A DNA stretch of 63,111 nucleotides, taken from NCBI GenBank assembly GCA_023489485.1, contig JAMDCU010000158.1:1-63111 (forward strand). Direction: 5' to 3'. A model generated the notes under the pieces. That model saw only the letters and a list, made by a program, of their open reading frames with translations. It was not told where the DNA came from and did not search any database. Below, piece after piece: positions 5,219 through 53,196 of this stretch. The DNA is from Chloroflexota bacterium (lineage in GTDB: Bacteria > Chloroflexota > Anaerolineae > UBA4142). The stretch's first letter is position 1; each line of letters starts with the position of its first letter. The translations under genes and the position numbers were made by a program.

Positions 5219-5226
5219 TCAATTTC

Positions 5227-8964: not shown

Positions 8965-8987
8965 ACGGAATACAGAGGAGATCAAGC

Positions 8988-12952: not shown

Positions 12953-12961
12953 GATCTCAAG

Positions 12962-24739: not shown

Positions 24740-26893
24740 CTACTGCACTCGAGACGTGCTGCCGTCAAATACCGTTATTTTTCCTGCAACGACTTCGATG
24801 TCTGTGTACAGCTGGTCGCCGATACCAATGGCGTATTTACCTGGAGTCAGGTCAATGACCGCGCGTCCCGTATTATCAGTATGCAAGTTGGCAACCCCCG
24901 AACCTTTGGTCGGCTTGCCGTTCACATCGAGTTTTTGTGTACTGATGTCGCACCATTGGTCTGTGTTGGCCGAGCCGTCTGGTTTCTTAAGCGCGAGAGT
25001 TATGCGCCCAAGGGTAATAATCCGTTTGGTCTCTTGGCCCGGCTGAACAGGGATGCTGTCTTCGCCCTCTGCGCCGTAGGCATTGCCCCATGAATATCCT
25101 GCCAAATCCGATGTCACTAGATACATTCCAGGAGCAAGATCAAAGCTTACTGCCCCGGTGTTATCGGTCTGACGCCAGGCCACTTGGCCCGAAGATACCC
25201 AATGGCCTGCAACGTCCTGCTGTTGCATGTAGACGGTGACGCCTTGGTTAACAATCGTCGTCCCATCCGCTCGTACAAAACCGTATGTCAACCGTCCAAT
25301 CGATACGACCACTTGGGTGGTCTGGCCTGATGCGACAGAAACGCCCGTTTTTCCCTTTACATCGGCCGCGTCTCCCCAGTTATAACCTGCCAAGTCTACT
25401 GCGACTATGTACTGTCCGGGGTTGATGTTCAACGTCGCTGTTCCTGCGTTATCCGTGCTAGCCCATCCCGCGTCGTTCGCCTTTACCCATCTCCCTTGGA
25501 TGTCTTGTTTTTGCGCATAGATGCTTACGCCGACACCCTGCAGCACTTGGCCGGTGCCCTGCCTCAGGGTGACTTGAATAGAACCCTGGCCTGCGGGTGC
25601 CTTGGAACCTGCTATGGTGCTAATTGCGTAGGCCTGTCCGATGTTCTTGTCTGAAATAGGCACTGTCGGTTGCTGGGTTGGCACCGGCGATTTCATAGGC
25701 GTGGGAGCCAGAGTTGGTGCTGCCGTCGGAGGTACTGCAGTCGCCAACGGCATTGCGGTTGGCGCGATAGTTGGTATCGCTGACGGCGCTGCGGTTGGTG
25801 AGCTAGCCAGCGAGTTGATCAGCGCGGACGTTGGAATCGCGGTTGGTATCCCAGTTAACGTGAGCGCGGCCGTCGCCGTAGCTGTTGCTATCTGGGTTGC
25901 CGTTGGTGTGGATTGAGGCAAAAGGAGCGCGACGAGCTTTTGAGATATGCCCGGAATTGCCGCAAACACGGCAAGACATCCGGCAACCAGTACGAGAGCG
26001 ACAAGGGCCACCGCCGTGCATGCAAGCCCGGGTTTGGACCTTTTGATCGGCACCTGCTTGGCGTTCGGCGTCACTGACGCACGCAGTGCGGCAGCGAACA
26101 TCTCGGCAGAGGCATAGCGATCCGCCGGTTTCTTTTCCAAGGCTTTGAGGACTGCCGTCTCAACGCTCGGGGGCACCTTCGCCCCGGACTGGCTCATTGG
26201 AGGTGGCAATTCATTCACATGCTTGTACAGAATCGCCATCGGATCATTCCCCTGGAACGGGGTGCTGCCCGTGAGCGCCTCATAGGCGACCACGCCCAGC
26301 GAGTAGATGTCGGAGCGGGCATCGGCAGGCTTGTTCTGGGCTCGCTCCGGTGCAGCATACTCGACCGTGCCGCTAAACGCTCCGCTCATGCTCATCGTCG
26401 AACTGGCTCGCACCGCCTTAGCCAAACCAAAGTCGGCGAGTTTGGCACGGCCGTCGCCCGAGATGAGAATGTTAGACGGCTTGATATCGTTGTGGAGAAG
26501 ACCAATTGCATGGGCCGCCGCAAGACCCTCCGCCACCTGGCTAACCACTCTCACAGCCTCGTCACAGGGCAACTGTTTCTTCTCGGCGAGGATATCTGCA
26601 AGCGAATGGGGCAGATATTCCATGGCAATGAACAGTTTCCCCTGTTCCTGCCCCACCTCATAGATCGTCACGATATTCGGATGGTTTCCCAGACCGGCGA
26701 TGGTCTTGGCTTCGCCCAGAAACGCTTGCGTGAATTGGGGGTCGGTTAACAGGACTGGCTTTAGAACCTTGAGGGCTACGTCCCGGCTGAGGGTAGGATC
26801 CCACGCCCGATACACGACTCCGAATCTTCCCTCTCCGATCTCCCCTCTAATCTCGTACTTGCCCAAATGTGGAGACGTTTGCGACGCGCTCAT
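24740..26893 (-). CDS. Ser/Thr protein kinase STK3 (non-RD: HND): kinase, TM helix, three beta-sandwich repeats
   Basis: GEGRFGVVYRA. The catalytic loop is LLHNDIKPSN rather than HRD. DFGL is present. TM segment LACTAVALVALVLVAGCLAVFAAI. Three ~85-aa repeats (..TDN(A/T)G.A...L.PG.Y......GY.WG..). ATG at 26893 is preceded by AAAGGAG. Confidence 0.9.
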   Translation of the reverse strand: MSASQTSPHLGKYEIRGEIGEGRFGVVYRAWDPTLSRDVALKVLKPVLLTDPQFTQAFLGEAKTIAGLGNHPNIVTIYEVGQEQGKLFIAMEYLPHSLADILAEKKQLPCDEAVRVVSQVAEGLAAAHAIGLLHNDIKPSNILISGDGRAKLADFGLAKAVRASSTMSMSGAFSGTVEYAAPERAQNKPADARSDIYSLGVVAYEALTGSTPFQGNDPMAILYKHVNELPPPMSQSGAKVPPSVETAVLKALEKKPADRYASAEMFAAALRASVTPNAKQVPIKRSKPGLACTAVALVALVLVAGCLAVFAAIPGISQKLVALLLPQSTPTATQIATATATAALTLTGIPTAIPTSALINSLASSPTAAPSAIPTIAPTAMPLATAVPPTAAPTLAPTPMKSPVPTQQPTVPISDKNIGQAYAISTIAGSKAPAGQGSIQVTLRQGTGQVLQGVGVSIYAQKQDIQGRWVKANDAGWASTDNAGTATLNINPGQYIVAVDLAGYNWGDAADVKGKTGVSVASGQTTQVVVSIGRLTYGFVRADGTTIVNQGVTVYMQQQDVAGHWVSSGQVAWRQTDNTGAVSFDLAPGMYLVTSDLAGYSWGNAYGAEGEDSIPVQPGQETKRIITLGRITLALKKPDGSANTDQWCDISTQKLDVNGKPTKGSGVANLHTDNTGRAVIDLTPGKYAIGIGDQLYTDIEVVAGKITVFDGSTSRVQ

Positions 26894-26961
26894 TGGCGCT
26901 CCTTTTGTCGCGCAGATGCTGCTAAGGATTGTTGTGCGAGTTGGTCGATCATCGCCTGTCT

Positions 26962-29166
26962 CTAATAGAAGGCTTCGCCGCAATTATCGCAGAACTTGAC
27001 GCCTATCACCGACGGTTTGCGGCACTTTTTGCAGATTTGGACCTGTCCGGCCACCTGGCTGTGCCCATCCGCCGTAATGGGAGTCGGCTGGGTTCCACCT
27101 GGAGTGACAACCACGAGCGGCTGGGTCGGCGTGGTTCTGGAAAAAGCCGTCGCCGTGTCCCGCTGGCTATCCAGCGCCTTGTTGAACATCTCTTGCAGCC
27201 GTCGCGCGTTGCTCTCTTGGGTCTCTTGCAGACTCTTGGCCGACAGTTTTTGCTCCTCCAACATCTTGTCATACATCTGCTGTAGCTGCTTCTGCAGCTC
27301 GGGCGACTGCATCGCCTTGAATTTCTCGATGAACGCTTGAGCAACTTGCGGCGAGTGCTCCGCTGCCATGGCCAGGATTTGTTCCTCCGTCATGCCTTTC
27401 AGCGTCTCGGTGCGTTTGAGTTCCGCGAGAATCCTACCCTGCTCCGCTCCGGAGACTGAAATGAGTGCCTCCGAGGACATTTGCCCGATAACCTGCAGCC
27501 GCTGCAGTTCCTGCTCATGTGCGGCACGCTTCTCTTGCATCGTCAGCTCAGTCCGGGCACGGAGCTCCTGCAACTGAAGATCCAAGTGAAGTTTCTGCTG
27601 CTCGAGTTGGTTCATTCTCTCTTGATGCTGCAGCGCAAGTTTCTGGGTCTGCATCTGGTTCAACAGAGCGAGCCCCATTTCGCCGTCAAGCCGATCCTGC
27701 TCGCGTTCCGCTGCGCGAATTTCCGCTTCCGTCTTGGCATTTGATATCCGAATCTCGTTCGCGGCCTTGGCATTTCCGATCTCGCGCACTTGTCTCTCCG
27801 CATCATCGAGCTTACCTTGCTCCCGGCGGAACTCACTTTCGGCTCTTTGACGTTTGATCTCGCTTTCCCACCTTAGCGTATCCAGCCCAACGCGTCCTTC
27901 CAATCGCTGGCGCTCCGTGTCCAGTTCAAACCGAATTTGCGAACCGGTCAGATCTCGTTGGAGGCTCAAATCAGCCGTCTTGAGTTCATAATCGCGTTCC
28001 ATATCGGCTTTTGCGGCGAGGTGAGCCCGGAGTTTGTCTTGGTCCTCTCGGCGCTCGAGGATGTCCCGTTTCAGGTTCTCTCTCTCTTCCGCCCGAAGCA
28101 GCTTCTTCTTGTCTACGTCTTCCATAAAGACATCGAAATCGTCTTTGCTCCGGATTTCATTCATCTGTTCGGCCATTACAGTGCGGCGCATACGCTCCCA
28201 AGCGGCCGCCCGCTGTTCGTGGATTTCGGCCTTGGCAGTGTCTTCTGCTAGCTCCTGAAGCCAGGTCTCTTTGGTTATATCGAACACCCGCTTGCGGCCT
28301 TGGTTCTTGGCCTCCTCCTCGCTGATTTGCAAAAAGTATTCTTCGTTGACGCCGCGGACCTTGTCATAGCGCCCGAGTTCATAATCCAGAGTACGAAGCT
28401 GAACAAGGCGCATGCCGGCGAGTTCGAGAGTGCGACTCAGGTGCGCTTCCATTTCGACCTCCATCTCACGCTTGAGTTGGAGGTTGCGGGAGAGTTCGTC
28501 CACCGAGCGCTTGCCGATGCATTCCTGGGCGGCATCCACGACTTCGTCAAACAGATAGCCGCGCAGCGACCGCAGAGGAAAGGACCGTTGGCCCTTCATG
28601 AGGTTAGTGATAAAGAGGAGCGGATCGTGCATCTGCAACACGAGTTCGCACTTCATCGAGATCTTCAGCGGGTCCTTGGTATAGAGGCCGGTCAGCTCAA
28701 AGGGCAGGTCCGCGCTGCCGACATCCGTCAAAATCGCACTAAAGGTCTTGGTCGAGTCCAGGAGTGTGTTGAGAACCGGAATGCGGTCCACAAGTGTCTG
28801 CACGGTGTACCTGCCGGGATCGACAACGCCAATGTTCTTGCCATCCGCAATCAGCAGGGCGCGCGTTCCCGGCTCGACGGTCAGATCGGTCGCCAGGACG
28901 CCTCGCAGGTCGCGTACGTCGATGCGGGTCGCAAAGTCATCCGCGCCCCGTTGCCAGCAATTGTCCACGACCATTGGCATCTGCGCTCTCGCCAAATCCT
29001 GACCGCAGCGGCGGCAAAAGTTGGCTGTGGCATCATTCTCCGTGCCGCAGTTGCCGCACTTGACCTTACCCCCCTTGGCCGGCTCGCCACAATAAGGGCA
29101 GAAATTCGATCCTCCGGGGAAATCTTTTCCGCACTTGGCGCATTTTTGCTGGAACAGGTTCATCAT
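26962..29166 (-). CDS. Zinc-ribbon, SPFH/Band-7-like domain, ~400-aa coiled coil, C-terminal zinc ribbon
   Basis: N-terminal CAKCGK..CPYCGEP..CGNCG..CRRCG. The block GVVDPGRYTVQTL...LVLQMHDPLLFI resembles SPFH (Band_7_1-type) proteins. A very long E/R/Q/L heptad region follows. C-terminus is CKKCRK..CDNCGEAFY. Confidence 0.6.
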   Translation of the reverse strand: MMNLFQQKCAKCGKDFPGGSNFCPYCGEPAKGGKVKCGNCGTENDATANFCRRCGQDLARAQMPMVVDNCWQRGADDFATRIDVRDLRGVLATDLTVEPGTRALLIADGKNIGVVDPGRYTVQTLVDRIPVLNTLLDSTKTFSAILTDVGSADLPFELTGLYTKDPLKISMKCELVLQMHDPLLFITNLMKGQRSFPLRSLRGYLFDEVVDAAQECIGKRSVDELSRNLQLKREMEVEMEAHLSRTLELAGMRLVQLRTLDYELGRYDKVRGVNEEYFLQISEEEAKNQGRKRVFDITKETWLQELAEDTAKAEIHEQRAAAWERMRRTVMAEQMNEIRSKDDFDVFMEDVDKKKLLRAEERENLKRDILERREDQDKLRAHLAAKADMERDYELKTADLSLQRDLTGSQIRFELDTERQRLEGRVGLDTLRWESEIKRQRAESEFRREQGKLDDAERQVREIGNAKAANEIRISNAKTEAEIRAAEREQDRLDGEMGLALLNQMQTQKLALQHQERMNQLEQQKLHLDLQLQELRARTELTMQEKRAAHEQELQRLQVIGQMSSEALISVSGAEQGRILAELKRTETLKGMTEEQILAMAAEHSPQVAQAFIEKFKAMQSPELQKQLQQMYDKMLEEQKLSAKSLQETQESNARRLQEMFNKALDSQRDTATAFSRTTPTQPLVVVTPGGTQPTPITADGHSQVAGQVQICKKCRKPSVIGVKFCDNCGEAFY

Positions 29167-29229
29167 GGGGAATCCTCCTTGGGGATTGCAGATGAGATAA
29201 AGCCGTTTATCGTATCACAGTGTGTTGAC

Positions 29230-31248
29230 TCAGTTGCCTTTCAAAATCATGGCGCGATTGGCGAAGCAGTTGCGCAGGTTGGAGAGAGCCGAGTTGGCAG
29301 CCGAGATCGTCTCGTCCACGGCTAGCCAATCCGATTTCTGGACCATTCTGTCGAGAGTTGCCGACTGCACGGTCAATTTCTCGGCGTCCCGGCGCAGTCC
29401 TGTGCCGAGGTCCATAAGGCGTTGCGCTTGTTTGGCCGACACGCGATCTCCAAGCATCAACACCAGCCCACCCGTCTCCGCGCCTTCAAGCTCCTGTCGT
29501 AAGCGGTTTGCCTTTTCTTCAATCTCTTTCAGCCGAACCGCTCGGTCAAGGTGGTCGCTTACCATGTGATGACGCACCTCGCGCCAGCAGTCAGCCATCT
29601 TCGTCAGCTCATTGGCCGTTCGAGCACGCAGGAGAGCATCGGATTCCAGGACACGTTCGGCGCTGAGCCGGTTCAGCCAGCCGCGCTCGAAATCCTCTTT
29701 GCGCCGGCTGTACTCGGAATCCAGCCACTGAGAGCCGATAAACGCGCCAACCGTTGCGAGAAGGCCGAAGCCGGCCGCCATGATTTTGATGGTCGAGTCA
29801 TCTTGGACCAGACCCGGCGCGACGATGCCGACGAAGGTAATCGCGGAGAACAGAATACCGGCGAGCAGCTTGAGACGTGTGGCCCATGCGAGGAGGGCCG
29901 CGTTGCGCTGCAAAAACTTGTCTTGCTTGGTCTGGTGCCGATCATGGAGCAATACCTGCTCGATGCGGTCTTCGATGCGCTGACGTAGTCCGTTCATCCG
30001 GCGCTCAATCGCCTGGCTCAGGACTGCGATCCCGCGCGCCTGGCCTCCGGGCTTGGCCAGTTCCTGCTTGACCTGCTTTTCCTCTTCAGGGGTGAGCAGA
30101 TGCGGACTACCGGTCTTGTCCTCCAGCGCCTTGACTGCGCTTTCCACATCGGGGCTCGCCTTGAGCTGTTGCTCGATCTCCTGCTTGCCGCTCTCGCCCT
30201 GGAGAGTCTCAAGCTTCTCGATTGCTTGCGCTTCGTCAACCGCAGGGGCAAAGTCGATTGACGTGATCTCTGCCTCGGTGAGTCCGTTGTCCGCACAAGA
30301 ATCGTCGAGCGGCTTGCTGACGCAGCCAATCACTTGAGAAAGAGAGCGCGGATTATCGAATAGGGTTCCGGCATCATAATCGTTGACCGCGGCTTGAATG
30401 GCCGGAGAGAGGTCGGCCGCGACGATATTAGCGAGGGTTCGGCGATCGATGAGAGGTTGCGTGTCAAGCACGCGGGCCGCAAAGCGGAGGGCATCCGTGA
30501 CACGCATCCGGACGCGAAACGTCCAGTCGAGGGGCTCGCCATCAGCGGAAGTGAGGTGGTGAGCGGTAGCTAAGAGCGGGAACTCGGTCATATCGACGAG
30601 CGCGGCAAGTGCCGGCTCACGGGAGCCGATCCACCGGATGATGTGCTGGCCCGGAGGAACAACCTTTGCAGGGGCATTTCCCGTGTAAAGGACGCCGTTG
30701 TGGTCAGGCGGGACCAGGAAGGTCTTCCAGAAGATGCCGGGCAATCCGTCCACCTCGACGAGGCGAGCGATCACAGCCGCGTTCGGGTCTGGCGCAGATA
30801 TTGGCTGGCTCGGAGCAATCGGTTCATTCCGGCCCGACGCCGGCGTCGCCGCAGGTTTGCTCCCGAAAGGCCAGTTTGGCAGTAACCCCGCCGATTTGAG
30901 GAGGGCGCTCACCGCGCGAGTTCCGCCGCCGACGATCAGGCCGGTAAAGCCAAAGTCGAGGAGCCTTGCCCACTCCTGGCTCACATTCGGGATTCCGAGA
31001 TTCAGCCAATGAAGGATGCCGATGCCAAAGATCCAGCAGACGGCAATGCCCAGCAGGACGGCAAGCGATGACGCGACCAGAGGCTCCCGCCGCTCGAAAT
31101 CGGCAATTTGGGCGGGAGAGGCATCGCGCGGCGCCTGCCATCCGACAATGTCTTCCAGTAGAATGTGCGTTACGCCTTCGACGGCGGCTGCGATGAGCAG
31201 CAGCCCAAACAGGAACCCTGCGCTCGGCAAGCCACAAATCTGTGCCAT
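29230..31248 (-). CDS. Membrane protein with an SPFH-like central domain, internal TM hairpin and C-terminal coiled coil
   Basis: Hydrophobic N-terminus (GFLFGLLLIAAAV; LAVLLGIAVCWIFGIGIL). The block GIFWKTFLVPPDHNGVLY..VVPPGQHII..FRVRMRVTDALRFA is SPFH-like. A second TM pair is LLAGILFSAITFVGIV / AAGFGLLATVGAFIG. Confidence 0.5.
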   Translation of the reverse strand: MAQICGLPSAGFLFGLLLIAAAVEGVTHILLEDIVGWQAPRDASPAQIADFERREPLVASSLAVLLGIAVCWIFGIGILHWLNLGIPNVSQEWARLLDFGFTGLIVGGGTRAVSALLKSAGLLPNWPFGSKPAATPASGRNEPIAPSQPISAPDPNAAVIARLVEVDGLPGIFWKTFLVPPDHNGVLYTGNAPAKVVPPGQHIIRWIGSREPALAALVDMTEFPLLATAHHLTSADGEPLDWTFRVRMRVTDALRFAARVLDTQPLIDRRTLANIVAADLSPAIQAAVNDYDAGTLFDNPRSLSQVIGCVSKPLDDSCADNGLTEAEITSIDFAPAVDEAQAIEKLETLQGESGKQEIEQQLKASPDVESAVKALEDKTGSPHLLTPEEEKQVKQELAKPGGQARGIAVLSQAIERRMNGLRQRIEDRIEQVLLHDRHQTKQDKFLQRNAALLAWATRLKLLAGILFSAITFVGIVAPGLVQDDSTIKIMAAGFGLLATVGAFIGSQWLDSEYSRRKEDFERGWLNRLSAERVLESDALLRARTANELTKMADCWREVRHHMVSDHLDRAVRLKEIEEKANRLRQELEGAETGGLVLMLGDRVSAKQAQRLMDLGTGLRRDAEKLTVQSATLDRMVQKSDWLAVDETISAANSALSNLRNCFANRAMILKGN

Positions 31249-31435
31249 GGGACCCCCGTGTCACAAAACGAGATTCACACCCGTCCGTGCGAGAAAACTC
31301 ACGACTGGAAGGGATGTGCCATACCGGGCAAATCGAAGAGCGACATCATGCCATTTCCTTTGTTGTCCCACCCCGGGGTGCAAGACCCAGGGGGCAGGAC
31401 GATTTGATATTTGCCCGCAGCCCTCCAACCTGACT

Positions 31436-31466
31436 GCAGCCAGGGCACCGACCGCGCCATCTTTCA
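31436..31466 (-). promoter_or_regulatory. 31-nt box conserved 3' of both template repeats (second copy 51590-51620)
   Basis: gcagccagggcaccgaccgcgccatctttca versus gcagccagggcaccgaccgcgccatttttca (30/31). It lies about 55-70 nt downstream (- sense) of TR1 and TR2, and the flanking sequence is diverged. Confidence 0.5.
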
Positions 31467-31532
31467 TCCCTCGGCGACGCGTCCCGAGCGAGTCAAAAGA
31501 CGCGACGCATTTCCGGCGTAAGTGAAAGGTGT

Positions 31533-31647
31533 GCGACGCACAAACCCGAAAACCGTAGTTCTCGTTACGGTTGCCTGGATTGTTGTAGTTGCGATAGGCG
31601 CAGCGGACGTTCGTTGCATTGTTGTTGAACGCGCCCCCCCGCAAAAC
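31533..31647 (-). repeat. DGR template repeat TR1
   Basis: AAC-rich on the - strand (..[35 protein letters not shown]). Aligns to VR1 with 15 substitutions, all at TR adenines. Confidence 0.9.
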
Positions 31648-31670
31648 CCACGCGCCATCGGTCGAGCCCC

Positions 31671-32033
31671 TCACGCCGAGCCGCTTGGCTCGGGAGTGAC
31701 GGTTTTGAGCCAGCCGCCGAGCAACCGTCCCAGTTGGGCGATTATCTCGGAGGCGTAGCGATATTGCCGGCTCGAAATCCACTGCCAGCGCTCGCACAAA
31801 CGCAAGTACAGACGCACTTTGAGCAGTTCGGTGTCGGCCGCGCGCAGCTTTTGGGCGCGCATATTACCGCGGTGCGAATTCGCCTCGATCAGTAATTCCT
31901 GAAAGTTCAGCGCGGCATCCTGTAGACGACGCGTGACCACAAAGCGCTGCGCGCGCGGGAAACGCAACGTCAGCGGGACCAGCCAAGAAACGAAATCATA
32001 CGTCCGTGCAAAGATGATCATTTCCTCAGACAT
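31671..32033 (-). CDS. avd: DGR accessory variability determinant (Avd-like four-helix-bundle protein)
   Basis: 120 aa from the ATG at 32033, which overlaps the RT stop by 8 nt. [42 protein letters not shown]...[10 protein letters not shown] matches the Avd / 23S-IVS-protein pattern. The track start at 32126 lies inside the RT gene. Confidence 0.8.
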
Positions 32034-33087
32034 GCGTGACCTCGTCGGCGCGCAGGCCATACCGGTCCAGGAGCGCGCGGCGCAAGCCGTACGTGTCGCC
32101 ATGGCCCGCGTGGTTGATCCACCCACGCACGGATGCGTTCACGCGCTCGCGCGGCGCGGTCGCCAGCAAGTATTTGAGCCGCCGCTGAAAGGCGATTCCC
32201 TTGCGGCGTTTCAAACGACGATGATCTGGGAAAATGATAAAGCCGAGAAACGGAATTCCCTCGCGGACCGGGTACGGGCGGGCGCTTTCGGTGTGAATCG
32301 TCAGCCGATAGCGTGCGAGCCGCTCGATCAGCGCTGCGCGCCATTCCCACAATTGCGCCTTGCTCTCGCTGAAAAGCAAGAAATCGTCCACATACCGCAG
32401 ATACACCGGACAGCGTAGTTCGCGCTTGACGAACTGATCGAAGGGGTTCAGATAAACGTTGGCCCACCATTGCGAAGTGAGGTTCCCGATTGGAAGGCCG
32501 CGCGGGCGCGTCGCGGCAAACAGATCGTCGCCAGGAAAAAGAACGAGGCGATATTCTTCGGATAAGACATCGCGTCCGCTCGCGAGAATTCGATCAATGA
32601 GCCACTGTAGATCCGGTGTGGGGTGGATCAATTGTTCCAGCGTCTCCCGCAAAATCGCGTGATCGATGGAAGGAAAGAACTGCACCACATCGCCTTGCAA
32701 GACGTAAGGGAATCGGCGCGCAAATTGTTGGCACCGGTCGAGTGCGCGATGCGTGCCTCTGCCAGTCCGATTGGCATAACTGTCCGGCAGGAAAGCGCGT
32801 TCGAGACACGGCACCGTCACGCGGCAGAGCGCGTGATGCACGACCCGGTCGCGAAAGGGCGCGGCAGAGATGAGCCGGCGCTTGGGTTCGTGGATGAAGA
32901 ACGAGTGGTAGGCGCCGGGTTGGTAGGTCTGCGCGCGCAATTCGTCTTGTAGCTTGAGCAAATTGTCCGCGAGTCTGAATTCGAAAGTCGCCGTTGCCGC
33001 GCGCCCACGCTTGCCGCGCGATGCTGCGCGAAACGCTTGCCATAAATTGTCCCAGGCGTAAACTTGATCAAGGTCTATTCTTTCCAT
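32026..33087 (-). CDS. DGR reverse transcriptase
   Basis: 353 aa. RT motifs include RRLISAAPFRDRVVHHAL, GLPIGNLTSQWWANVYL (the DGR-type I/LGxxxSQ signature) and YLRYVDDFLLF (YxDD). Confidence 0.95.
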   Translation of the reverse strand: MERIDLDQVYAWDNLWQAFRAASRGKRGRAATATFEFRLADNLLKLQDELRAQTYQPGAYHSFFIHEPKRRLISAAPFRDRVVHHALCRVTVPCLERAFLPDSYANRTGRGTHRALDRCQQFARRFPYVLQGDVVQFFPSIDHAILRETLEQLIHPTPDLQWLIDRILASGRDVLSEEYRLVLFPGDDLFAATRPRGLPIGNLTSQWWANVYLNPFDQFVKRELRCPVYLRYVDDFLLFSESKAQLWEWRAALIERLARYRLTIHTESARPYPVREGIPFLGFIIFPDHRRLKRRKGIAFQRRLKYLLATAPRERVNASVRGWINHAGHGDTYGLRRALLDRYGLRADEVTHV

Positions 33088-35074
33088 TTTTCATTTTTCC
33101 ACGAGGGGGCGCTGTGTGCCCCCTCGTGCTCCCCCGGGCGATCAGAGATTCAGAGTTCAGAGAGCCAGAGATCAGAGGTGGATGGGCGACGCACAAACCC
33201 GAAAACCGTAGGACTCGAGACGGTAGCCTGGAAGGTTGAAGTAGCGAGAGGCGCAGCGGACGCTCGTAGCATCGAGGTTGAACGCGCCCCCCCCGCAAAA
33301 CGCGGTATTGCCCTGATTCCGGTCCCGCCGGATTCTTCGCCGGTGACTTTTGATAGTACGCCTCGTCCCACCAATCGGCGCACCAATCCCACACGTTCCC
33401 CGCCATATCCACGCATTTGTATGGACTGTCTCCGTGCGAGTTATACTTGCCCACGGGCGTCTTCGTACCGACGTTGTTGCCAAAGTTGCACAGATTCGGG
33501 CTGGGCGCGTTATTCCCCCAAGGATAGATTCTGCCGTCAGTGCCGCGTGCCGCTTTTTCCCACTGCGCTTCGGTTGGTAGGCGAATCTCCGTCCCATTTA
33601 CTTGGCTCGCCCATTTGCAGAACGCAACCGCGTCATCCCAGTTGACGCCCGTGATCGGATGATTGCCCTTCTGATTCACATTGCCAGACACCGTAATCTG
33701 GTAACCTGTCGCCTTGACAAAAGCCCAGAATTGCAGAACTGTCACCGGGTACTTGCCGATATAGTACTCATCCAATTCGACGGTGTGTTGCGGCTTTTCC
33801 TTCGCTTCTGCATGCCCATCGTTGTTTCCGCTTCCCATCGCAAATTCGCCTGCAGGTACACGCACCAGTACCAGTTCAATGCCTTGCGCCAATTGCAGAA
33901 CGATTTCGTCGCCGCTCTGGAATCGCTCCAGCGACCGCTCCGCGTGCGTGAGCCGGGTTTGCGCTGCCCTTTGCTTTTCGTCGGCTTTTCGCCGCGCCTC
34001 TTCCGCCTCCAATGCGGCTTGGCGCGCTTGCGCTTGCTCCTGTTGCAGTTCCTTCAGCAGCGTTTCAGTTTCTCCCGCCAATTGATCCAGTTGCGCGGCT
34101 TGCGCTTCCGCCAGTCGCTGCGCACGTTCGGCCTCCTCCTTCTGCCGCTGCAGCGCCTCAATCCGTGCTCGCGCTTGGGCTACCGCCGTCTCGCGCACTT
34201 GCATCAGTTTCGCCGTTTTCTCCGCCGTGGCCTGCTGTTCGGCGCTCAGCGCGGCTTGCAGCGCTTGGACGAACGCGGTCGCATGCTTGGGACGGTCGGC
34301 AGGACGCTTGGCAAGCGCGCGCAGGACTTGGGCGGCAAGCGCAGGCGGAAGGTCGGCTCGCAGATCGAGCGGGTTGGGCGGTGGTGCATCAGCATGCATC
34401 CGCACTACCGCGACCGGCGTGTTTGCACGGAACGGTATCTGACCGGTGAGCATCTCAAATACGACCACCCCGAACGAGTAGAGATCGGAGCGTTCGGTGG
34501 CCGGCTGGCCGCAGGCTTGCTCGGGCGAAAGATACTCGGCCGTCCCAATAAAGCTTTGCGATTGGCTGATGGTGCTCATGTAGGCGGAGCCTTCGATCCC
34601 ACGCATCAGCCCAAAATCGCTCAGGTATGCGCGCCCATCCTCGTCCAATAGGATGTTTGCCGATTTCACGTCGCGGTGGACCACACCCTGCGCGTGGGCA
34701 TAGTCCAGTGCGCCGGCCACCTGTGCAGCGATGCGGAGTACCATTGGCACGGCGAGCGCGCCGGAATCGTGCAGCCGCGTGCGCAAGTCAAAGCCCCGCA
34801 CGAGCGTCATCGCGATGTAAAAGCGTCCTTGCGCCTCGCCGTAATCGAGCGACCTGACGATGTTGGGATGGTCGAGCTTGGACGTGAGTTTGAACTCTTG
34901 CTGAAAGCGCGTGATGAACGTGGGGTCGTCCGCGAGCTTGGGATCAAGCGCTTTGACCGCGACATCGCGCTGGTTTTTTTCGTCGCGTCCGAGGTACACC
35001 GTCGCAAAGCCACCGCGACCGAGTTCACGAAAGAGCGTGTAAGGACCGAGAGAAAATGGAAATTGATTAACCAA
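33068..35074 (-). CDS. STK4: Ser/Thr kinase, coiled coil, FGE-sulfatase/C-type-lectin-fold domain; DGR target, reading frame broken inside VR1
   Basis: TTG start. GRGGFATVY, HRDVKSANILL, DFGL. ~110-aa coiled coil with no hydrophobic TM stretch. FGE motifs [78 protein letters not shown]. As assembled the frame slips at the G8 run and ends at 33068. With G7 the protein would end at 33172 (..FRVCASPIHL*). Confidence 0.85.
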   Translation of the reverse strand: MVNQFPFSLGPYTLFRELGRGGFATVYLGRDEKNQRDVAVKALDPKLADDPTFITRFQQEFKLTSKLDHPNIVRSLDYGEAQGRFYIAMTLVRGFDLRTRLHDSGALAVPMVLRIAAQVAGALDYAHAQGVVHRDVKSANILLDEDGRAYLSDFGLMRGIEGSAYMSTISQSQSFIGTAEYLSPEQACGQPATERSDLYSFGVVVFEMLTGQIPFRANTPVAVVRMHADAPPPNPLDLRADLPPALAAQVLRALAKRPADRPKHATAFVQALQAALSAEQQATAEKTAKLMQVRETAVAQARARIEALQRQKEEAERAQRLAEAQAAQLDQLAGETETLLKELQQEQAQARQAALEAEEARRKADEKQRAAQTRLTHAERSLERFQSGDEIVLQLAQGIELVLVRVPAGEFAMGSGNNDGHAEAKEKPQHTVELDEYYIGKYPVTVLQFWAFVKATGYQITVSGNVNQKGNHPITGVNWDDAVAFCKWASQVNGTEIRLPTEAQWEKAARGTDGRIYPWGNNAPSPNLCNFGNNVGTKTPVGKYNSHGDSPYKCVDMAGNVWDWCADWWDEAYYQKSPAKNPAGPESGQYRVLRGGRVQPRCYERPLRLSLLQPSRLPSRVLRFSGLCVAHPPLISGSLNSESLIARGSTRGHTAPPRGKMKNGKNRP
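33102..33126 (-). promoter_or_regulatory. GC-rich 9-bp hairpin downstream of VR1 (second copy 51903-51927)
   Basis: cgagggggc-gctgtgt-gccccctcg. It sits 60 nt 3' of VR1 and 15 nt before the RT ATG. It is part of an ~84-nt flank that is ~93% identical at both VR loci. Confidence 0.6.
33186..33301 (-). repeat. DGR variable repeat VR1
   Basis: Encodes ..[39 protein letters not shown]. Identical to TR1 except at 15 TR-adenine positions, plus one extra G in a G7 run (C8 on + at 33287-33294 versus C7 at 31634-31640). Confidence 0.9.
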
Positions 35075-35286
35075 TTTTTACCCAACTCCTGGAGAAAAGG
35101 GGGTTCGTGATATGCTCCGATAGAGCTCAGTAAACCAATAATGAGGGAGTTGCCGGTCTACTCACAGTCCCAGAAGCTTGCTCCCTTGCACACCGGCGAG
35201 TCGGTGATTCTCCACGGCCAGTGGCGCGGATGGTCGTCAGCCTCGCTTCGACACTACCTCCGATGGTTGGTGCCCTCCACACTCTA

Positions 35287-37329
35287 CTATGGCTTCAAGG
35301 ATCTCGGGGTCGGCGATGGAATGGGCGTCGAGGTGACGATGACGACATAAGGCGTCGCCGTGACATAGACGGTAATGGGCGTCGCAGTCGGCAGCTCGGG
35401 CGTTGGAGTGATTGGCTCGTTAGAGTACTCTTTCAAGTCGAGGGTAACGGCGATGGACCCGAGGTCGACTTGCATCCTGACCATCCCGATCCCCTTTGCA
35501 TACCAACCCGCGACCTGCATCCGCCACTGCGGTACCTCGATGTCATAGCGCGCGTGAATCGTGTCGAACGTGCCGGCCCCAACTGTGATTCTCTCCTGCC
35601 CGATCACCTCCGATGTGGCCTTGCCTTGACTGCCGCTCAGGGTGATGGGCCGGGACCATTGAAAGGTCGATTTCGGATCAAGCCCAAGAAGAGGTACGAC
35701 CGGCGCGAGAAACACGGGCGCCGGGTTGGTCGGCCGGTTGCCCACGGTGATCGGGGAATAGGAAGCAAGCGCAAGACTGGAATTTACGTCGGACATGGTA
35801 TAGTTATTTTGCCACCAGACGCTCTCCGGTATCGAGAACTCGACCGGGTAGGTCGTCGTGCCGCTTATGTTCTCCGGCGGCATGACTTTGACCGTCAGGT
35901 CTCCCGGCAACAAAGGTCCGGAGTAAACCCAGCGGTTTCCCGGCGCCAAAGGAAGATAGTCCTGCCTGCCCGTCGTCGGCAGCGTGGGACGCGAGCTCAC
36001 AAGTATGGACCCCGGCCCGGTTGCGTTGCCCGAGAGCGTAGATGACGTGAGCGGAGGGTGCGGGGTCGAAGCAGAGTCTGCCAACCCCGGATTTGTCAAC
36101 GCCGATTGGACAGCTTGGGGCACCCCCGGCGTACTCAGCCCGGGTCCTGACATTCGTGCCAATAGGCTCGGCCCGAGAAGAAATAGAAGGAACAGCACAA
36201 TCAGTCCAGCAGCGGCAGCTAACCCAATCAGCGGATTCACCCGTCTTATGATCGAGGCGGCTACCTTTGTCAGGCGCTCAATCTGCTGTCGCCGCCGAGC
36301 CGCTTCAGCCTGTTTTCTGCGCTCTGCTTCTTCGCGGGCTTGTGCGCGCCGTTCTTGTTCTTCACGCACGCGTCGCGCGCGCTCCTCAGCCTGCTCGCGG
36401 CGGGCCTGTTCCTGGGCGAGCCGCCGCGCTTGCTTCTCGGCCTCTATTTGGGCCCGCCGACGTGCCTCCTCTTCCTGCAACCGACGCTTTTCGGCTTCCC
36501 GGGCAGATACATCTGCGGCGGCGAGCGCATCGCGCAGTGCGGTGGCTGTGGGGTAGCGCTCGGCCGGCGATTTGGTTAGCGCTCGCTCCAAGACCGGCTG
36601 AATCTCCCGAGGAAGATCCGGACGGGAGTCTAGAATCCTGGGAGTGGGAGCCATCAAGTGCTGACGCATCACCGCGGCCGGTGTGTCGGCATCGAACGGC
36701 GTGCGCCCGACGAGCATCTCATAGACGACACATCCGAGAGCGTAAATGTCCGTCTGCGCCGTCGCCTCCTGGCCCTCCCACACCTCGGGCGCAATATAGG
36801 CCGGGGTTCCGATGAGCGCGCCGGCGGATGAAAGACCTCCTGACGACTCGGCTGCTTTGACGAGGCCAAAATCCGTAATGGTCACATAATCGTCCGGTCC
36901 AAGAAGAATGTTGCTTGGCTTGATATCTCGGTGGACGAGACCCCGACCGTGGGCATAGTCGAGCCCGTCCGCAATCTGGGCGACAATGCGAAGGACCCGG
37001 TCGAATGGCAGCGCTCCTGCCTGCCCGATGAGGTGCTTGAGATCGCTGCCGGCGATGAACTTTTCCGCGATATAGTGTGCGCCTTGCCATTCGCTGATCT
37101 CGTAGATCGTCACGATGTGCGGATGGTCCAAACCCGCGGCTGACTTGGCTTCCCGCTGGAGGCGGGCGACCAGCACCGGGTCGGCGAAGATGCCGGAATG
37201 GAGCACCTTGAGCGCGACAACGCGGTCGAGGGTTGTATCGAGCACCTCATAGACAACCGCGTTCGCACCCCGCCCGATCTCGCGATGGATCTTGTACTTG
37301 CCAAATGCCTCCGATAGACCTTGCGGCAT
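35287..37329 (-). CDS. STK5: Ser/Thr kinase, coiled coil, TM helix, uncharacterised extracellular beta-rich domain
   Basis: GRGANAVVYE, HRDIKPSN, DFGL. E/R/A coiled coil. TM segment LIGLAAAAGLIVLFLLFLLGPSLL. ~230-aa C-terminal domain that I could not assign. Confidence 0.9.
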   Translation of the reverse strand: MPQGLSEAFGKYKIHREIGRGANAVVYEVLDTTLDRVVALKVLHSGIFADPVLVARLQREAKSAAGLDHPHIVTIYEISEWQGAHYIAEKFIAGSDLKHLIGQAGALPFDRVLRIVAQIADGLDYAHGRGLVHRDIKPSNILLGPDDYVTITDFGLVKAAESSGGLSSAGALIGTPAYIAPEVWEGQEATAQTDIYALGCVVYEMLVGRTPFDADTPAAVMRQHLMAPTPRILDSRPDLPREIQPVLERALTKSPAERYPTATALRDALAAADVSAREAEKRRLQEEEARRRAQIEAEKQARRLAQEQARREQAEERARRVREEQERRAQAREEAERRKQAEAARRRQQIERLTKVAASIIRRVNPLIGLAAAAGLIVLFLLFLLGPSLLARMSGPGLSTPGVPQAVQSALTNPGLADSASTPHPPLTSSTLSGNATGPGSILVSSRPTLPTTGRQDYLPLAPGNRWVYSGPLLPGDLTVKVMPPENISGTTTYPVEFSIPESVWWQNNYTMSDVNSSLALASYSPITVGNRPTNPAPVFLAPVVPLLGLDPKSTFQWSRPITLSGSQGKATSEVIGQERITVGAGTFDTIHARYDIEVPQWRMQVAGWYAKGIGMVRMQVDLGSIAVTLDLKEYSNEPITPTPELPTATPITVYVTATPYVVIVTSTPIPSPTPRSLKP

Positions 37330-37357
37330 ACAGTTTCCCCCAGACCCGTTCAGATCA

Positions 37358-39221
37358 CTACTCGCAGTCCCAGAAGCTCGCGCCCTTGCACACCGGCGAA
37401 TCCGTCACCTTCCAGGGCCAATACCGCTCGTCGTAGACTTGGATTTTGCCCAGTTGCTCGAGCGGCACACGGCGAGTGCCGTCCACTTCTAAGGCGGATA
37501 GTGCGTGGTTCATTGACGAGTACGCAATGACCCATTTTCCGCCCGTGGACCAGAATCTTGGAACGTCTCCTATGTCGCTCCCGCTTATGCGAGTGAGACC
37601 ACTTCCATCAACGTTCATAAGAAATGTACCGAAGTCATTCTTAAACATATCGTAGACCGCAATCTTGCTCCCGTCCGGTGACCAAACCGCGTCAGAGACG
37701 TACCCATCAGACGGGCCTCGACTTGTAACGACAGTGCTATTACTCCCGCCCTCATCCATCAATAGGAGTTGGTTTCCGAAACCCCCGTGTCGGCGGAAGA
37801 TAGTCCCCACGCGACGGAAACCAGCACTTCAGATCCATTTCGCGACCAGACTGCAGATGCAATCTTCCTGTTCCGAGGCGGCGCAAAGATTTGCAACCGA
37901 GTTTGCTTGCCCAAGTCAAAGATGCTTAGAAGATTACTCGCGGCCGTTCCTGCGGCGTCATTCCTCTCTATTCTCTTCTGCGGCCCCGGCGGCGTTGCCG
38001 TCGAGGTCGGCGGTGGAATCGGCATGGCGGTCACGACCACCACCCGCGGCGTCCATGTCGGGATGGAAGTAGCCGTGTGCACGGCCCCGTTGGCGCTACG
38101 GTAGGCGGCACAATGGAGGCGCTTGTTGTCACCGGGGTCGAAGCTGAAGTAGACACGACTGGGATCCCTGCGACCGTTTCCGAGGACACTGGAAGCGCCG
38201 AGGGCGTTGCCTCGGTGATTCCTGCCATCTGCCTGCTTGGAGGAGCGAACAAGCCCGCTGCAGCGAACACCACGGAAAGAATCAAGAATACCGCCGCAAT
38301 GCCTGCTACCACGAGCGCCCAGGTCTTTTTCTTCGGCCGGGCAGGCGGTTTGGCTTCTGGCTTGGGAGTCTCTATGGGGGGCGGCGGGTCGATGAGACGC
38401 GGAACAGACGCCAGTTGCAGGGCGAGAGCGAATGCTGCTGCAAACTCGCCAGCGCGGGCATAGCGTTCGCTCGGCTCCTTGGCGAGCGCTTTCAGCACTG
38501 CCTGCATGACACCATCGGGCAGACCGGTCATGGGACGAACCGGCATTACGGGGTGTCGCCACATGACGGCTGCCGGAGTCTCAGCATCGAACGGCACCCG
38601 TCCAGTGAGCAGTTCGCATACGACCACGCCCAACGCGTAAATATCTGTTTGCGCGCTCGCTTGCCGTCCCTCCCATACTTCCGGGGCAATGTATGCGGGA
38701 GTTCCGATGATGGCGCCCGAGGACAGGCTTGCGGAGGATTCGGTTGCCTTAACAAGGCCGAAATCTGTTACGGTGGCCGCATCATCCGCACCTAGAATGA
38801 TGTTGCTCGGCTTGATGTCTCTATGGATGAATCCTCGGGCATGAGCATAATCCAATCCATCGGCAACTTGGCGCACAATGGCGATAACACGGCTTGGAGG
38901 GATAGCCCCTTCCTCTTTGATCACCTGTCTGAGATCGCGGCCTGGGATGTACTTCATGGCGATATAGTGGGCGCCCTGCCACTCGCCAATCTCGTAAATG
39001 GTGACAATGTGCTGATGATCGAGTTTAGCCGCCGCTTTCGCTTCCTGCTCAAAGCGCGAGACAAGTACCGGGTCAGAATAGATGCCGGCGTGCAAGACCT
39101 TGAGCGCAACAACACGATCGAGCGTCGTGTCCAGGGCCTCGTAGACGACGGCATTCGCGCCGCGGCCAATCTCTCGGCGAATCTTGTACTTGCCAAGCAT
39201 CTCGGGCAGAGGTTGCGTCAT
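37358..39221 (-). pseudogene. STK6: Ser/Thr kinase, TM helix, TolB/PD40-like beta-propeller; split by two frameshifts
   Basis: The kinase ORF 38031-39221 (GRGANAVVYE, HRDIKPSN, DFGL; TM WALVVAGIAAVFLILSVVFAAAGLF) continues in a second frame (..IPPPTSTATPPGP..IASAVWSRNGSEVLVS, to about 37760). It then continues in a third frame (37358-37810: ..AVWSPDGSKIAVYD..LMNVDGSG). Shifts are near 38060-38100 and 37780-37810. Confidence 0.7.
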
Positions 39222-39312
39222 TGCCGGCCTCCGTTCAACCCCGGTCAGGACTAGAATGTTGTTCTAACTCGAATTTAGGGCAAGATGAATCGCGGGCTCA
39301 GCCAGCTCGTAA

Positions 39313-51397: not shown

Positions 51398-51589
51398 CGC
51401 GATAGACCTGCTCAGCGCTATTTGGAGTCCGGTAGATGCAGCAGCCGTCCTGATCCGTGCGTACCGACCGCATCCGTGACGATCTGTGTGCGATAAGGCG
51501 GGGCGCTCCACCTCGAAGCCGATGGCTCAAGAAGTGGAGCATTTTTGGTATTCGCCTGCGGAGAGGTTTGCCCCATAACCCCGGTTTCC

Positions 51590-51620
51590 GCAGCCAGGGC
51601 ACCGACCGCGCCATTTTTCA
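51590..51620 (-). promoter_or_regulatory. Second copy of the 31-nt TR-downstream box
   Basis: See 31436-31466; 30/31 identical. Confidence 0.5.
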
Positions 51621-51675
51621 AGCCGCGTCAGCGCAGCCGTAGCCGCGCTGAATTTCTGGCACGCTGGAAAAACGT

Positions 51676-51799
51676 GCGACACGCACGCCCGCAACCCGTT
51701 GTTGTCGTTGCGATTGTCAGGGTTGTTGTAGTTGCGGTACGCGCAGCGGACGTTGTTCTCGTTGTTGTTGAACGACCCGCCCCGCAAAACGCGCGTGTC
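51676..51799 (-). repeat. Second template-like repeat TR2, with no adjacent RT or Avd
   Basis: The - strand encodes [37 protein letters not shown], with 13 Asn (12 AAC, 1 AAT). About 80% identical to TR1. It lies ~190 nt downstream of the VR2 gene stop. Confidence 0.7.
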
Positions 51800-51902
51800 T
51801 TTCGGTCGAGCCCTTCATGCCGCGTTTTGCGACGCTGACATGACACGATGAATGGTCTCTCGACATGTTGCGAGAGCGACGACGATTGAAAAACCTTTTC
51901 GA

Positions 51903-51927
51903 CGAGGGGGCGCTGTGTGCCCCCTCG
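51903..51927 (-). promoter_or_regulatory. GC-rich hairpin downstream of VR2 (copy of 33102-33126)
   Basis: Identical cgagggggc-gctgtgt-gccccctcg. Confidence 0.6.
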
Positions 51928-51972
51928 TGCTCCCCCAGACGATCAGAGATTCAGAGTTCAGAGACCCGGAGA

Positions 51973-53196
51973 TCAGAGCTGAATGGGCGACACGCACACC
52001 CGCAACCCGTCTTCATCCAGGCGGTCGTCAGGATTGAGCCAGCTGCGGTACGCACAGCGGGCATCGGCCTCGTCGCTGCCGCTGAACGACCCGCCCCGCA
52101 AAACGCGCGAGTCGCGACTGTTGGTGTCCTCCTGTCCATCACCCCTCTCGTACGGATAAGGCTTGTACAAGCTGCTCGTCCACTCCCACACATTTCCTGC
52201 TATATCTGCGCAGCCATACGGGCTATCTCCGCGCGGGCTGTACTCGCCTACCGGCGTCGTGTCCTTCACATTCATATTGAAGTTGCAGCGGTTTGCGTCC
52301 GGCGCGTCGTTGCCCCATGGATAAATTCGCCCATCGGTACCGCGCGCCGCTTTCTCCCATTCCGCTTCGGTTGGCAAGCGCACGCTGCGTCCAGTTGTCT
52401 CGCTCACCCATTCGCAAAACGCCACCGCATCATCCCAGCTCACCAGCACTACCGGATGGTTTGCCTTCCCGCTCACATTGCTCTCGGGTCCCCGCGGATG
52501 CTGCCAATTTGCGCCCCTGACCTCTTTCCATCCACTCCCTGTGAAAGTCCACCCGCTGCCTTGCTGCTCTGCCGTCGTCTGATAGCTCGTGGCTTTCACG
52601 AATGCCGCAAACTGCGACACCGTCACGGGATACCTGCCAATCAGATACTCATCGAGGAATACCTTCTGCTGCGGTTGCTCGTTACTGTCCGTTTGCCGAT
52701 CCTTCCTCGGATCGCTGCCCATCAGAAACTCACCCGCCGGCACACGCATCAGTTCCAATGTCACATCCGGTGCCAGCGTGAGAATCAATTCATTCGCTTT
52801 GCGCTGGCCCTCTCCCGTCTCATTTCGTGCTTTTGACTCCGCTTCGCGTCGCGCCTGCTCCTCGGCTTCTTTCTTCCATCGCCTTTCCTCGATCGAAGCA
52901 CACTCATTGCAGATGAATAAAGCAGGATGCTGGTGGCGGAGACAAATGAATTCGCGTGTACATTTCCTGCACCGGAACGTTTCTTCGCGGCGGTTGTACT
53001 TGCCACAGAGTGGGCATTCGCCTCCGCCTAACGGGGTCGCCTGCTCTCCAATGACTACGGTTCCGGCCTTGACAACCGTGCCCCGGACGTTGACGATATC
53101 GCCGTCATCCGCGGCAAGTTGTGGCAATCTTGCACCGCAGTTTTGGCAGAACCTCGCGTCGTTCGGTTGATCGCGCTCACACTGGGGACACCGCAT
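51973..53196 (-). CDS. Zinc-ribbon / Cys-rich N-terminus, short coiled coil, FGE-sulfatase (C-type-lectin-fold) domain carrying VR2
   Basis: MRCPQCE..CQNCGARL, then CPLCGK..CRKCTREFICLRHQ..CNEC. FGE motifs [60 protein letters not shown]. No TM segment. Confidence 0.85.
   Translation of the reverse strand: MRCPQCERDQPNDARFCQNCGARLPQLAADDGDIVNVRGTVVKAGTVVIGEQATPLGGGECPLCGKYNRREETFRCRKCTREFICLRHQHPALFICNECASIEERRWKKEAEEQARREAESKARNETGEGQRKANELILTLAPDVTLELMRVPAGEFLMGSDPRKDRQTDSNEQPQQKVFLDEYLIGRYPVTVSQFAAFVKATSYQTTAEQQGSGWTFTGSGWKEVRGANWQHPRGPESNVSGKANHPVVLVSWDDAVAFCEWVSETTGRSVRLPTEAEWEKAARGTDGRIYPWGNDAPDANRCNFNMNVKDTTPVGEYSPRGDSPYGCADIAGNVWEWTSSLYKPYPYERGDGQEDTNSRDSRVLRGGSFSGSDEADARCAYRSWLNPDDRLDEDGLRVCVSPIQL
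51987..52113 (-). repeat. Variable repeat VR2
   Basis: Encodes RGGSFSGSDEADARCAYRSWLNPDDRLDEDGLRVCVSPIQL*. Aligns to TR2 with most changes at TR adenines, but also ~10 non-A changes and one extra codon. Confidence 0.7.

Follow-up and report, generated by a model that had tools for sequence, protein, structure and literature searches.

A Chloroflexota diversity-generating retroelement with a frameshifted kinase target and a second cassette lacking its own reverse transcriptase

INTRODUCTION

The diversity-generating retroelement (DGR) of Bordetella phage BPP-1 is the described system against which the present locus, a DGR in 63,111 nucleotides of Chloroflexota DNA (GenBank assembly GCA_023489485.1, contig JAMDCU010000158.1, positions 1 to 63,111; hereafter the window), is most readily compared. 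In BPP-1 a GC-rich hairpin just after the variable repeat (VR) is required for homing and target recognition, and the hairpins of phage DGRs have stems of 7–10 bp and GRNA tetraloops and lie 4–34 bp from the VR (Guo 2011, PMC3240598). In the RNA of the BPP-1 ribonucleoprotein (RNP) an Avd-binding stem-loop follows the template repeat (TR), the TR and the spacer (Sp) form a template:primer duplex, avd and Sp sequences form a second duplex termed 'cPRT Stop', and a stem-loop and adenosines come last; similar duplexes have been predicted in 207 DGRs (bioRxiv 10.1101/2023.10.23.563531).

Wu 2018 gives three major architectures for DGRs with Avd, namely B1 (avd-TR-RT, where RT is the reverse transcriptase), B2 (avd-RT-TR) and B3 (TR-(avd)-RT), and 48 variants. 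Cellular DGRs diversify C-terminal FGE/lectin domains fused to kinase or NTPase modules, and incomplete DGR loci, remnant TR/VR homology, several paralogous targets per genome and targets served in trans have been described (Dore 2024, PMC10907252; Vallota-Eastman 2020, PMC7517822).

The locus in the window is, with a probability of roughly 0.9, a chromosomal DGR and a typical member of a large Chloroflexota (Anaerolineae-type) clade. The same parts are carried by 80 related loci (L002–L081) from GTDB species representatives, nearly all of them Chloroflexota metagenome-assembled genomes (MAGs), with RTs 57–70% identical.

RESULTS

Comparison of TR1 and VR1

The two repeats of the main cassette, cassette 1, are as follows.

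31533..31647, minus strand: TR1, the template repeat (115 nt), recognised from its alignment with VR1 and its adenine count
33186..33301, minus strand: VR1, the variable repeat (116 nt), coding for the last 38 residues of a lectin-fold domain

Once one G was removed from VR1 the alignment with TR1 was gapless and contained 15 mismatches, all 15 at adenines of TR1 (8 A>T, 5 A>C and 2 A>G). TR1 contains 27 A in 115 nt and the hypergeometric probability of all 15 mismatches falling on A is 7e-12. The non-A sites were identical at 88 of 88 positions with no substitution. An initial annotation of the window had described the divergence as strictly adenine-specific and the non-A positions as identical apart from one extra G; the computed alignment agrees on both counts, the extra G being a run of eight (G8) in VR1 opposite a run of seven (G7) in TR1. 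The peptide strings which it quoted for the two repeats, 38 residues each, could be reproduced solely in the frame with the extra G deleted.

There are 17 adenine-containing codons in TR1, mostly AAC or AAT, which allow ~6e14 protein variants with no stop codon reachable. The lack of any non-adenine substitution between TR1 and VR1 indicates recent rewriting of VR1, and by this criterion the DGR appears to have been recently active.

Reverse transcriptase and Avd

One RT gene and one avd gene are present in the 63 kb.

32026..33087, minus strand: DGR reverse transcriptase, 353 aa, matching BPP-1 bRT and Pfam RVT_1
31671..32033, minus strand: Avd accessory protein, 120 aa, its start overlapping the RT stop

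The best solved relative of the RT is BPP-1 bRT (8ub7, E 4.8e-50), followed by group II intron RTs at ~1e-12. The DGR signature motifs noted initially were both found, IGNLTSQ at residues 200–206 and YVDD at 232–235, and alignment with bRT shows that the catalytic residues, D133 among them, are retained. The bRT residues K29, F66, R74, I76, D138, I181, G182, Q187, D215 and D216, whose roles are described in the BPP-1 cryo-EM preprint (bioRxiv 10.1101/2023.10.23.563531), correspond to K26, F63, R71, I73, D133, I200, G201, Q206, D234 and D235 respectively, and these catalytic and adenine-mutagenesis residues are invariant in 21 relatives. A homolog search gave 8000 RTs at E <1e-30, the nearest being 74% identical.

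The Avd-like open reading frame (ORF) had been reported to overlap the RT stop by 8 nt, and this overlap was located as ATGTCTGA. The protein scores above the cut-offs for DGR Avd proteins (NCBIfam NF033474 DivGenRetAVD, 94.3 bits against 80; Pfam bAvd PF22296, 67.7 bits against 40) and matches the BPP-1 Avd structures 4dwl and 8ub7_B.

Template RNA and spacer

The template RNA extends on either side of TR1 and contains the following elements.

31659..31670, minus strand: 5' bracket-duplex strand GGGGCUCGACCG, beginning right after the avd stop codon
31330..31532, minus strand: structured spacer RNA 3' of TR1, from an nhmmer profile match (31545..31330, E 1.1e-27) and covariation
31524-31531, minus strand: TR-side strand of a template:primer-like duplex, from duplex energies
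31474-31517, minus strand: GCCGGAAAUGC plus a stem-loop, in the spacer
31457-31465, minus strand: A-rich primer-like strand GAAAGAUGG, in the spacer
31443-31454, minus strand: 3' bracket-duplex strand CGGUCGGUGCCC, in the spacer
31408-31416, minus strand: stem-loop, then GGGCAAAUA, in the spacer
31365-31400, minus strand: terminal hairpin of the spacer

The 5' flank of the TR is complementary to, and covaries with, a segment ~80 nt 3' of the TR in 45 loci. This bracket duplex is formed by GGGGCUCGACCG and CGGUCGGUGCCC in the window, by GGGUUUGCCCG and CGGGCAAAACCC in L031, and by GGCCAGAUCG and CGAUCUGGUCC in L013. Over the 45 loci the mean energy was -23.9 kcal/mol for cognate pairs and -17.1 kcal/mol for non-cognate pairs, and none of 5000 permutations reached the cognate value. 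The A-rich strand just 5' of the bracket segment pairs with the 3' end of the TR, GAAAGAUGG with CACCUUUC in the window and GAAAGCCG with CGGCUUUC in L018; the observed energy of this primer-like duplex was reached in one of 5000 permutations. RNAalifold applied to the spacers of 26 relatives predicted three further helices with 27 pairs in total, 21 of which show compensatory changes.

These elements map one-for-one onto those of the BPP-1 RNA, with GGGGCUCGACCG as the analogue of the avd strand in the 'cPRT Stop' duplex. As duplexes of this kind had already been predicted in 207 DGRs, the result is a confirmation rather than a discovery. Rfam contained no family for the spacer RNA; at an E-value threshold the region around the locus gave one chance lncRNA match, and at the gathering threshold nothing real was found over the window. 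The ~200-nt structured RNA 3' of the TR, present in Chloroflexota DGRs of both gene orders, is a candidate new Rfam entry.

The initial annotation had placed the element at 31436-33301, a span that misses the spacer RNA beyond 31436 and most of the target gene. A 53-aa ORF from a public gene caller lies wholly within the spacer (31299-31460, minus strand; 1671-1832 in L001); it has no Pfam match and is almost certainly spurious.

Elements 3' of the variable repeat

Two elements are found at the 3' side of VR1.

33186..33211, minus strand: invariant 26-nt 3' block common to VR1 and TR1, CTACGGTTTTCGGGTTTGTGCGTCGC, at which the homology ends, in the position of an initiation of mutagenic homing (IMH) site
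33098..33185, minus strand: non-coding stretch 3' of VR1 ending in a GC-rich hairpin (33100-33128)

The 26-nt block may function as the IMH, by analogy with BPP-1. The hairpin, which had been claimed between target and RT and was located at 33128..33100, has an 11-bp GC stem and a 7-nt loop and lies 54 nt past the end of the TR/VR homology. No T run follows it, so it is not a canonical terminator. In many of the relatives GC hairpins with 3–4 nt loops cluster 45–60 nt after the VR; the VR1 hairpin thus agrees with its own clade and differs slightly from the consensus of the phages.

Gene order

The order proposed initially, target / hairpin / RT / Avd / TR, was recovered unchanged on the minus strand. 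It had been added that this layout differs from that of BPP-1, and this is true, the BPP-1 order being mtd-avd-TR-Sp-brt; the difference is no distinguishing feature, given that the layout of the window is the majority layout among the relatives. Avd was found in 73 of the 80 loci, with RT before avd in 43, avd before RT in 25 and avd on the opposite strand in 5. TR/VR pairs were sought in the relatives with a diagonal-seed scan and an adenine-tolerant Smith-Waterman alignment. Self-BLASTN returned no TR/VR pair, not even that of the window, because the mismatches break the high-scoring segment pairs. A confident pair was obtained in 47 loci including the window, 30 of them ordered VR<RT<avd<TR and 14 ordered VR<avd<TR<RT.

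In the RT-avd and avd-RT layouts alike the TR lies 30–120 nt after avd and the spacer profile matches directly after the TR. The avd gene, TR and spacer RNA form one contiguous conserved unit in both common layouts, and only the RT gene has switched sides. A third layout, VR-TR-spacer-RT-avd, was observed in L004 (JARYMM010000004.1, ~6060-8400). Either gene, RT or avd, can change its place with respect to the TR RNA in the Chloroflexota DGR clade. The order avd, TR, RT of type B1 (BPP-1-type) is not that of the window, which has RT, avd, TR. A literature text search for 'RT-avd-TR' returned no paper, the supplementary list of architectures in Wu 2018 being outside the text that was searched.

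Target gene 1 and the extra G

The gene diversified in cassette 1 and the homopolymer that interrupts it are as follows.

33172..35074, minus strand: target gene 1, 633 aa after frame correction; Ser/Thr kinase, coiled coil and C-terminal FGE-sulfatase domain (C-type-lectin fold)
33287..33294, minus strand: G8 run (C8 on the plus strand) at the 5' edge of VR1; its TR1 counterpart is G7 at 31634-31640

The Pfam matches are to Pkinase (1.6e-48) and FGE-sulfatase (4.5e-55), and the FGE domain also matches solved FGE structures and the Treponema variable protein TvpA (2y3c, E 2.6e-21). Kinase-FGE fusions form a large family in the homolog search. VR1 falls at the C-terminus of the lectin-fold domain and is out of frame as assembled. 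The frame-corrected protein is predicted to be a diversifiable sensor kinase, that is, a cytoplasmic Ser/Thr kinase with a lectin-fold ligand-binding face that could take ~6e14 forms. An enzymatic FGE role is unlikely because the C-terminal segment that holds the catalytic cysteine pair of FGE corresponds here to the VR.

The G8 run is the longest homopolymer of the window and lies 7 nt inside the 5' end of the TR/VR homology, ahead of the first variable adenine. With G8 instead of G7, target gene 1 carries a +1 frameshift: the assembled ORF (35074..33068, 668 aa) departs from the conserved frame at ...YRVLRGG, and VR1 is then read out of frame. Deletion of one G gives the 633-aa protein, which ends ...GFRVCASPIHL, 13 nt past VR1. 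The initial annotation had called the DGR complete and had recorded the extra G. All the parts are indeed present, but the frame of the target is broken at the 5' edge of VR1, a consequence that had been missed.

Over 26026-33130 and 35033-42149 (14.2 kb) the window is matched at 100% identity by two independent Logan contigs of run SRR10244963. An exact look-up of the 668-aa product gave no record, and a homolog search with the frame-corrected target returned only the window's own frameshifted 668-aa product and then a relative 62% identical; this provides no independent copy of VR1.

Among the other TR/VR alignments from the related MAGs, 5 of 58 need a 1- or 2-nt gap. Gapped alignments occur in L016, L018 (second VR), L020 (third VR), L028, L052 and L071, and the tblastn match to the FGE domain ends early in four of these loci (L016, L018, L020 and L028). 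Frameshifted VRs, or misassembled hypervariable regions, are recurrent in the Chloroflexota DGR clade.

A second cassette without RT or Avd

The spacer-RNA profile has exactly two matches in the window, 31545..31330 and 51688..51485. The second belongs to another cassette (51485-53196), some 20 kb from the first, which the initial annotation, while finding cassette 1, had left unconnected to it.

51973..53196, minus strand: target gene 2, 407 aa, an intact ORF with a double zinc ribbon and an FGE/lectin domain
51987-52104, minus strand: VR2, within target gene 2
51901..51929, minus strand: hairpin 3' of VR2, 11-bp stem and 7-nt loop, the same stem and loop as after VR1
51485..51814, minus strand: second template RNA gene without its own RT or Avd (nhmmer match 51688..51485, E 2.8e-24)
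51803-51814, minus strand: 5' bracket strand, identical to that of cassette 1
51676-51790, minus strand: TR2, directly after target 2 and the hairpin
51485-51675, minus strand: spacer RNA of cassette 2, with a 3' bracket strand at 51597-51608 identical to that of cassette 1

Identity between the two cassettes is 68% in the FGE coding DNA, 74% in the VR, 80% in the TR, 92% in the non-coding stretch after the VR and 100% in both bracket strands. Conservation of the cis elements at 92–100% against 68% for the coding sequence suggests that the same RT-Avd pair reads, or has read, both cassettes, or else that the flanks undergo gene conversion. TR2 retains 29 adenines and a complete RNA scaffold. 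Alignment of TR2 with VR2 showed 15 mismatches at A sites, mismatches at 10 of 86 non-A sites (8 of these at third codon positions) and a 3-nt insertion amounting to one extra codon. To judge from the 10 non-A mismatches, any rewriting of VR2 lies far in the past, and the repeat now evolves as an ordinary gene does. VR2 is cleanly templated by neither TR1 nor TR2, and no other TR1- or TR2-like VR was found in the window. It is a possibility that TR2 serves a remote target outside the window.

Genomic context

The DGR lies inside a minus-strand island of ~40 kb with at least 8 Ser/Thr kinases bearing varied C-terminal sensor domains, together with SPFH/zinc-ribbon proteins, PQQ beta-propeller proteins and Vps4-like AAA ATPases. 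A scan of the large ORFs gave no phage-structural genes. On this result, and with glycyl-radical enzyme genes upstream, the DGR is read as a cellular, chromosomal element.

The glycyl-radical enzymes (344-11405, plus strand) are three tandem paralogs of 807–820 aa (PFL-like + Gly_radical), with interspersed smaller ORFs of 250–568 aa that are probably activases. A third kinase-FGE paralog (47323-49272, minus strand) has an in-frame TAG (TGG>TAG) where relatives have W, in the context IYP*G with the codon within 47638-47655. It lacks both a TR match and a post-VR element, and is probably a pseudogene or a target that has been retired. At 37358-39221 (minus strand) a kinase gene followed by PD40-like repeats is split into three overlapping ORFs in different frames, requiring two frameshifts or more; the ORFs called in the independent Logan contig L082 are the same, so the disruption is probably real.

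The PQQ beta-propeller proteins and Vps4-like AAA ATPases recur on the minus strand (39313-41892, 49316-51511, 44612-45706 and 53831-55018). A zinc ribbon is present in one of the beta-propellers, and 49316-51511 is found immediately downstream of the TR2 cassette; the Vps4-like ATPases are upstream of the FGE-domain genes 47323-49272 and 51973-53196. This recurrence points to duplication of a multi-gene module. A direct repeat of 168 nt, its copies 98% identical, is found at 12742-12909 and 62944-63111 (plus strand), the second copy forming the contig end, and brackets ~50 kb with the kinase/DGR island. Beside the first copy, at ~12961-12990 (minus strand), is a tRNA-like T-arm/acceptor fragment, GGTCGCGGGTTCAAATCCCGTCTTCCGCTC, which was not called by ARAGORN. 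The repeat could be what is left of an att-like site of an integrated island, or could have arisen in assembly.

DISCUSSION

Interpretation of the locus

The central claim with which the analysis began, a DGR with RT, Avd, TR and an adenine-diverged VR, is borne out by the TR1/VR1 alignment, the family matches of RT and Avd, the fold of the target and the RNA duplexes. In the window avd directly follows the RT gene, which it overlaps, and behind the two comes a single RNA unit consisting of the 5' bracket strand, TR1 and the ~200-nt structured spacer. By analogy with the BPP-1 RNP, the spacer would fold back on the 3' end of the TR and self-prime cDNA synthesis, the bracket duplex would halt the RT at the 5' end of the TR, and the RT would copy the TR faithfully save opposite adenines. 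The cDNA would then replace VR1, with the 26-nt invariant block and the downstream GC hairpin marking the 3' junction.

The proposal that the locus is no DGR at all, and that a duplicated gene fragment happens to lie beside an unrelated retron or group II intron RT with the adenine bias arising by chance or composition, could draw on sub-threshold matches of the RT to group II intron, retron and Drt models. These matches are far below their cut-offs (TIGR04416, group II intron, 115.7 bits against 300; retron St85, 40.9 against 235), and by E-value a DGR RT is the best structural relative by 38 orders of magnitude. Together with an adenine restriction of P ~7e-12, a DGR-specific Avd and the same TR/VR geometry in dozens of relatives, they refute this proposal and leave it a negligible probability. 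Another reading is that a genuine DGR is decaying. On this account homing has come to an end and the target is turning into a pseudogene, although RT, Avd and TR can still be read, as the frameshift in target 1, the disrupted neighbouring paralogs and the decay of cassette 2 (10 non-A mismatches and an indel) might suggest. However, no non-A substitution separates TR1 from VR1 at 88 sites as against 10 of 86 for TR2 and VR2, the RT and Avd ORFs are intact with every conserved residue kept, and all the RNA elements are intact. Homing is independent of translation of the target, so that the frameshift is uninformative on RT activity. A relic is therefore improbable.

If the DGR and its target were fully intact, G8 would be an error, made in sequencing or in assembly, within the longest homopolymer of the window and possibly helped by heterogeneity of the VR in the population. 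The position of the indel within the G7/G8 run is consistent with this, as are the recovery of a canonical 633-aa kinase-FGE protein on removal of one G, the gaps required in 5 of the 58 other alignments, and the Logan assembly, which lacks exactly the target gene (33131-35032), a loss compatible with mixed variants. Against an error, the contig is otherwise base-perfect over the 14.2 kb shared with the independently assembled Logan contigs, a run of 8 nt is short for a consensus indel error, and other genes of the island are truly disrupted (the kinase gene frameshifts reproduced in L082 and the TGG>TAG change in the paralog). Frameshifting TR/VR indels across the DGR tree are also reported in Wu 2018, and the gapped alignments among the relatives can be counted in favour of a real allele as well. 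An error is a possible though not the favoured explanation, and G8 is probably a real null allele produced by slippage, either in replication or at the homing junction. Such an allele would be correctable by a later homing event crossing over 5' of the G run.

Several observations weigh against the interpretation given here. VR1 is known from one assembly only, the Logan contigs leaving 33131-35032 uncovered, and with G8 target 1 could not make its variable domain. The 7-nt loop of the hairpin and its 54-nt distance from the VR exceed the 4-nt GRNA loop and 4–34 bp range of phages. The predicted priming nucleotide is a purine, G here, by position only. A scan for promoters and terminators on the minus strand found none and was uninformative there. 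Finally, the differences between TR2 and VR2 at 10 non-A sites indicate that cassette 2 has long been frozen.

The RT-Avd of cassette 1 probably served cassette 2, 20 kb away, at least in the past; the TR2/VR2 pair has now decayed. A more ambitious reading is that one RT-Avd drives two template RNA genes, with the RT-less unit under selection while VR2 is frozen and the G7/G8 run acting as a reversible on/off switch. This is doubtful. If true, either TR2 serves a remote target outside the window or the cell retires one target yet keeps its template.

The locus adds one well-resolved cellular DGR that would diversify a cytoplasmic sensor kinase, of a class with a supposed role in adjusting signalling or conflict sensing in filamentous bacteria. 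Of greater use than the locus are the comparative by-products, namely a conserved avd-TR-spacer unit with the RT gene on either side of it, and recovery in Chloroflexota, with strong covariation, of the BPP-1 RNA architecture of primer duplex, stop duplex and stem-loops. The window also offers a side-by-side contrast between a recently rewritten and a long-frozen cassette sharing one RT. The current understanding of DGRs is unchanged, and the frameshift and the second cassette are the sole points worth follow-up.

Comparison with known systems

The locus resembles the BPP-1 DGR in having an RT of the same family, an Avd, adenine-specific transfer from TR to VR at the C-terminus of a lectin fold and a hairpin 3' of the VR. 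Both RNAs have a stem-loop immediately 3' of the TR, a primer duplex between TR and spacer, and a stop duplex of upstream and downstream strands, beyond which come a stem-loop and adenosines. The two differ in that the BPP-1 DGR is in a phage whereas that of the window is chromosomal, and in that the RT gene is upstream of avd in the window and downstream of the spacer in BPP-1. Where BPP-1 has a tail-fibre tip as its target, the window has a cytoplasmic kinase with an FGE-type lectin domain; the hairpin is farther from the VR and has a 7-nt loop, and the predicted priming position is G rather than A. The spacer measures ~200 nt (144 nt in BPP-1), and its profile did not match BPP-1, so that no sequence similarity was seen at the level of the profile.

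With the DGRs of other Chloroflexota and Anaerolineae the locus shares its RT, Avd, FGE-type target, TR after avd, spacer RNA profile and GC hairpin ~50 nt after the VR, and differs in the frameshift of its target within a homopolymer. With the nearest RT 74% and the nearest target 62% identical it is a new species-level member of this group. No second RT-less TR-spacer unit was found within 7 kb of the RT of any relative, the available flanks being too short to reveal one 20 kb away. The kinase and conflict-system sensors diversified by DGRs in multicellular bacteria and cyanobacteria are similar in the C-terminal FGE/lectin domains joined to kinase or NTPase modules and in their paralogous targets, incomplete loci, remnant TR/VR homology and targets in trans. 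They belong to other organisms, and the RT-less locus of the window differs from them in keeping its own TR and a full spacer RNA and not merely a remote VR.

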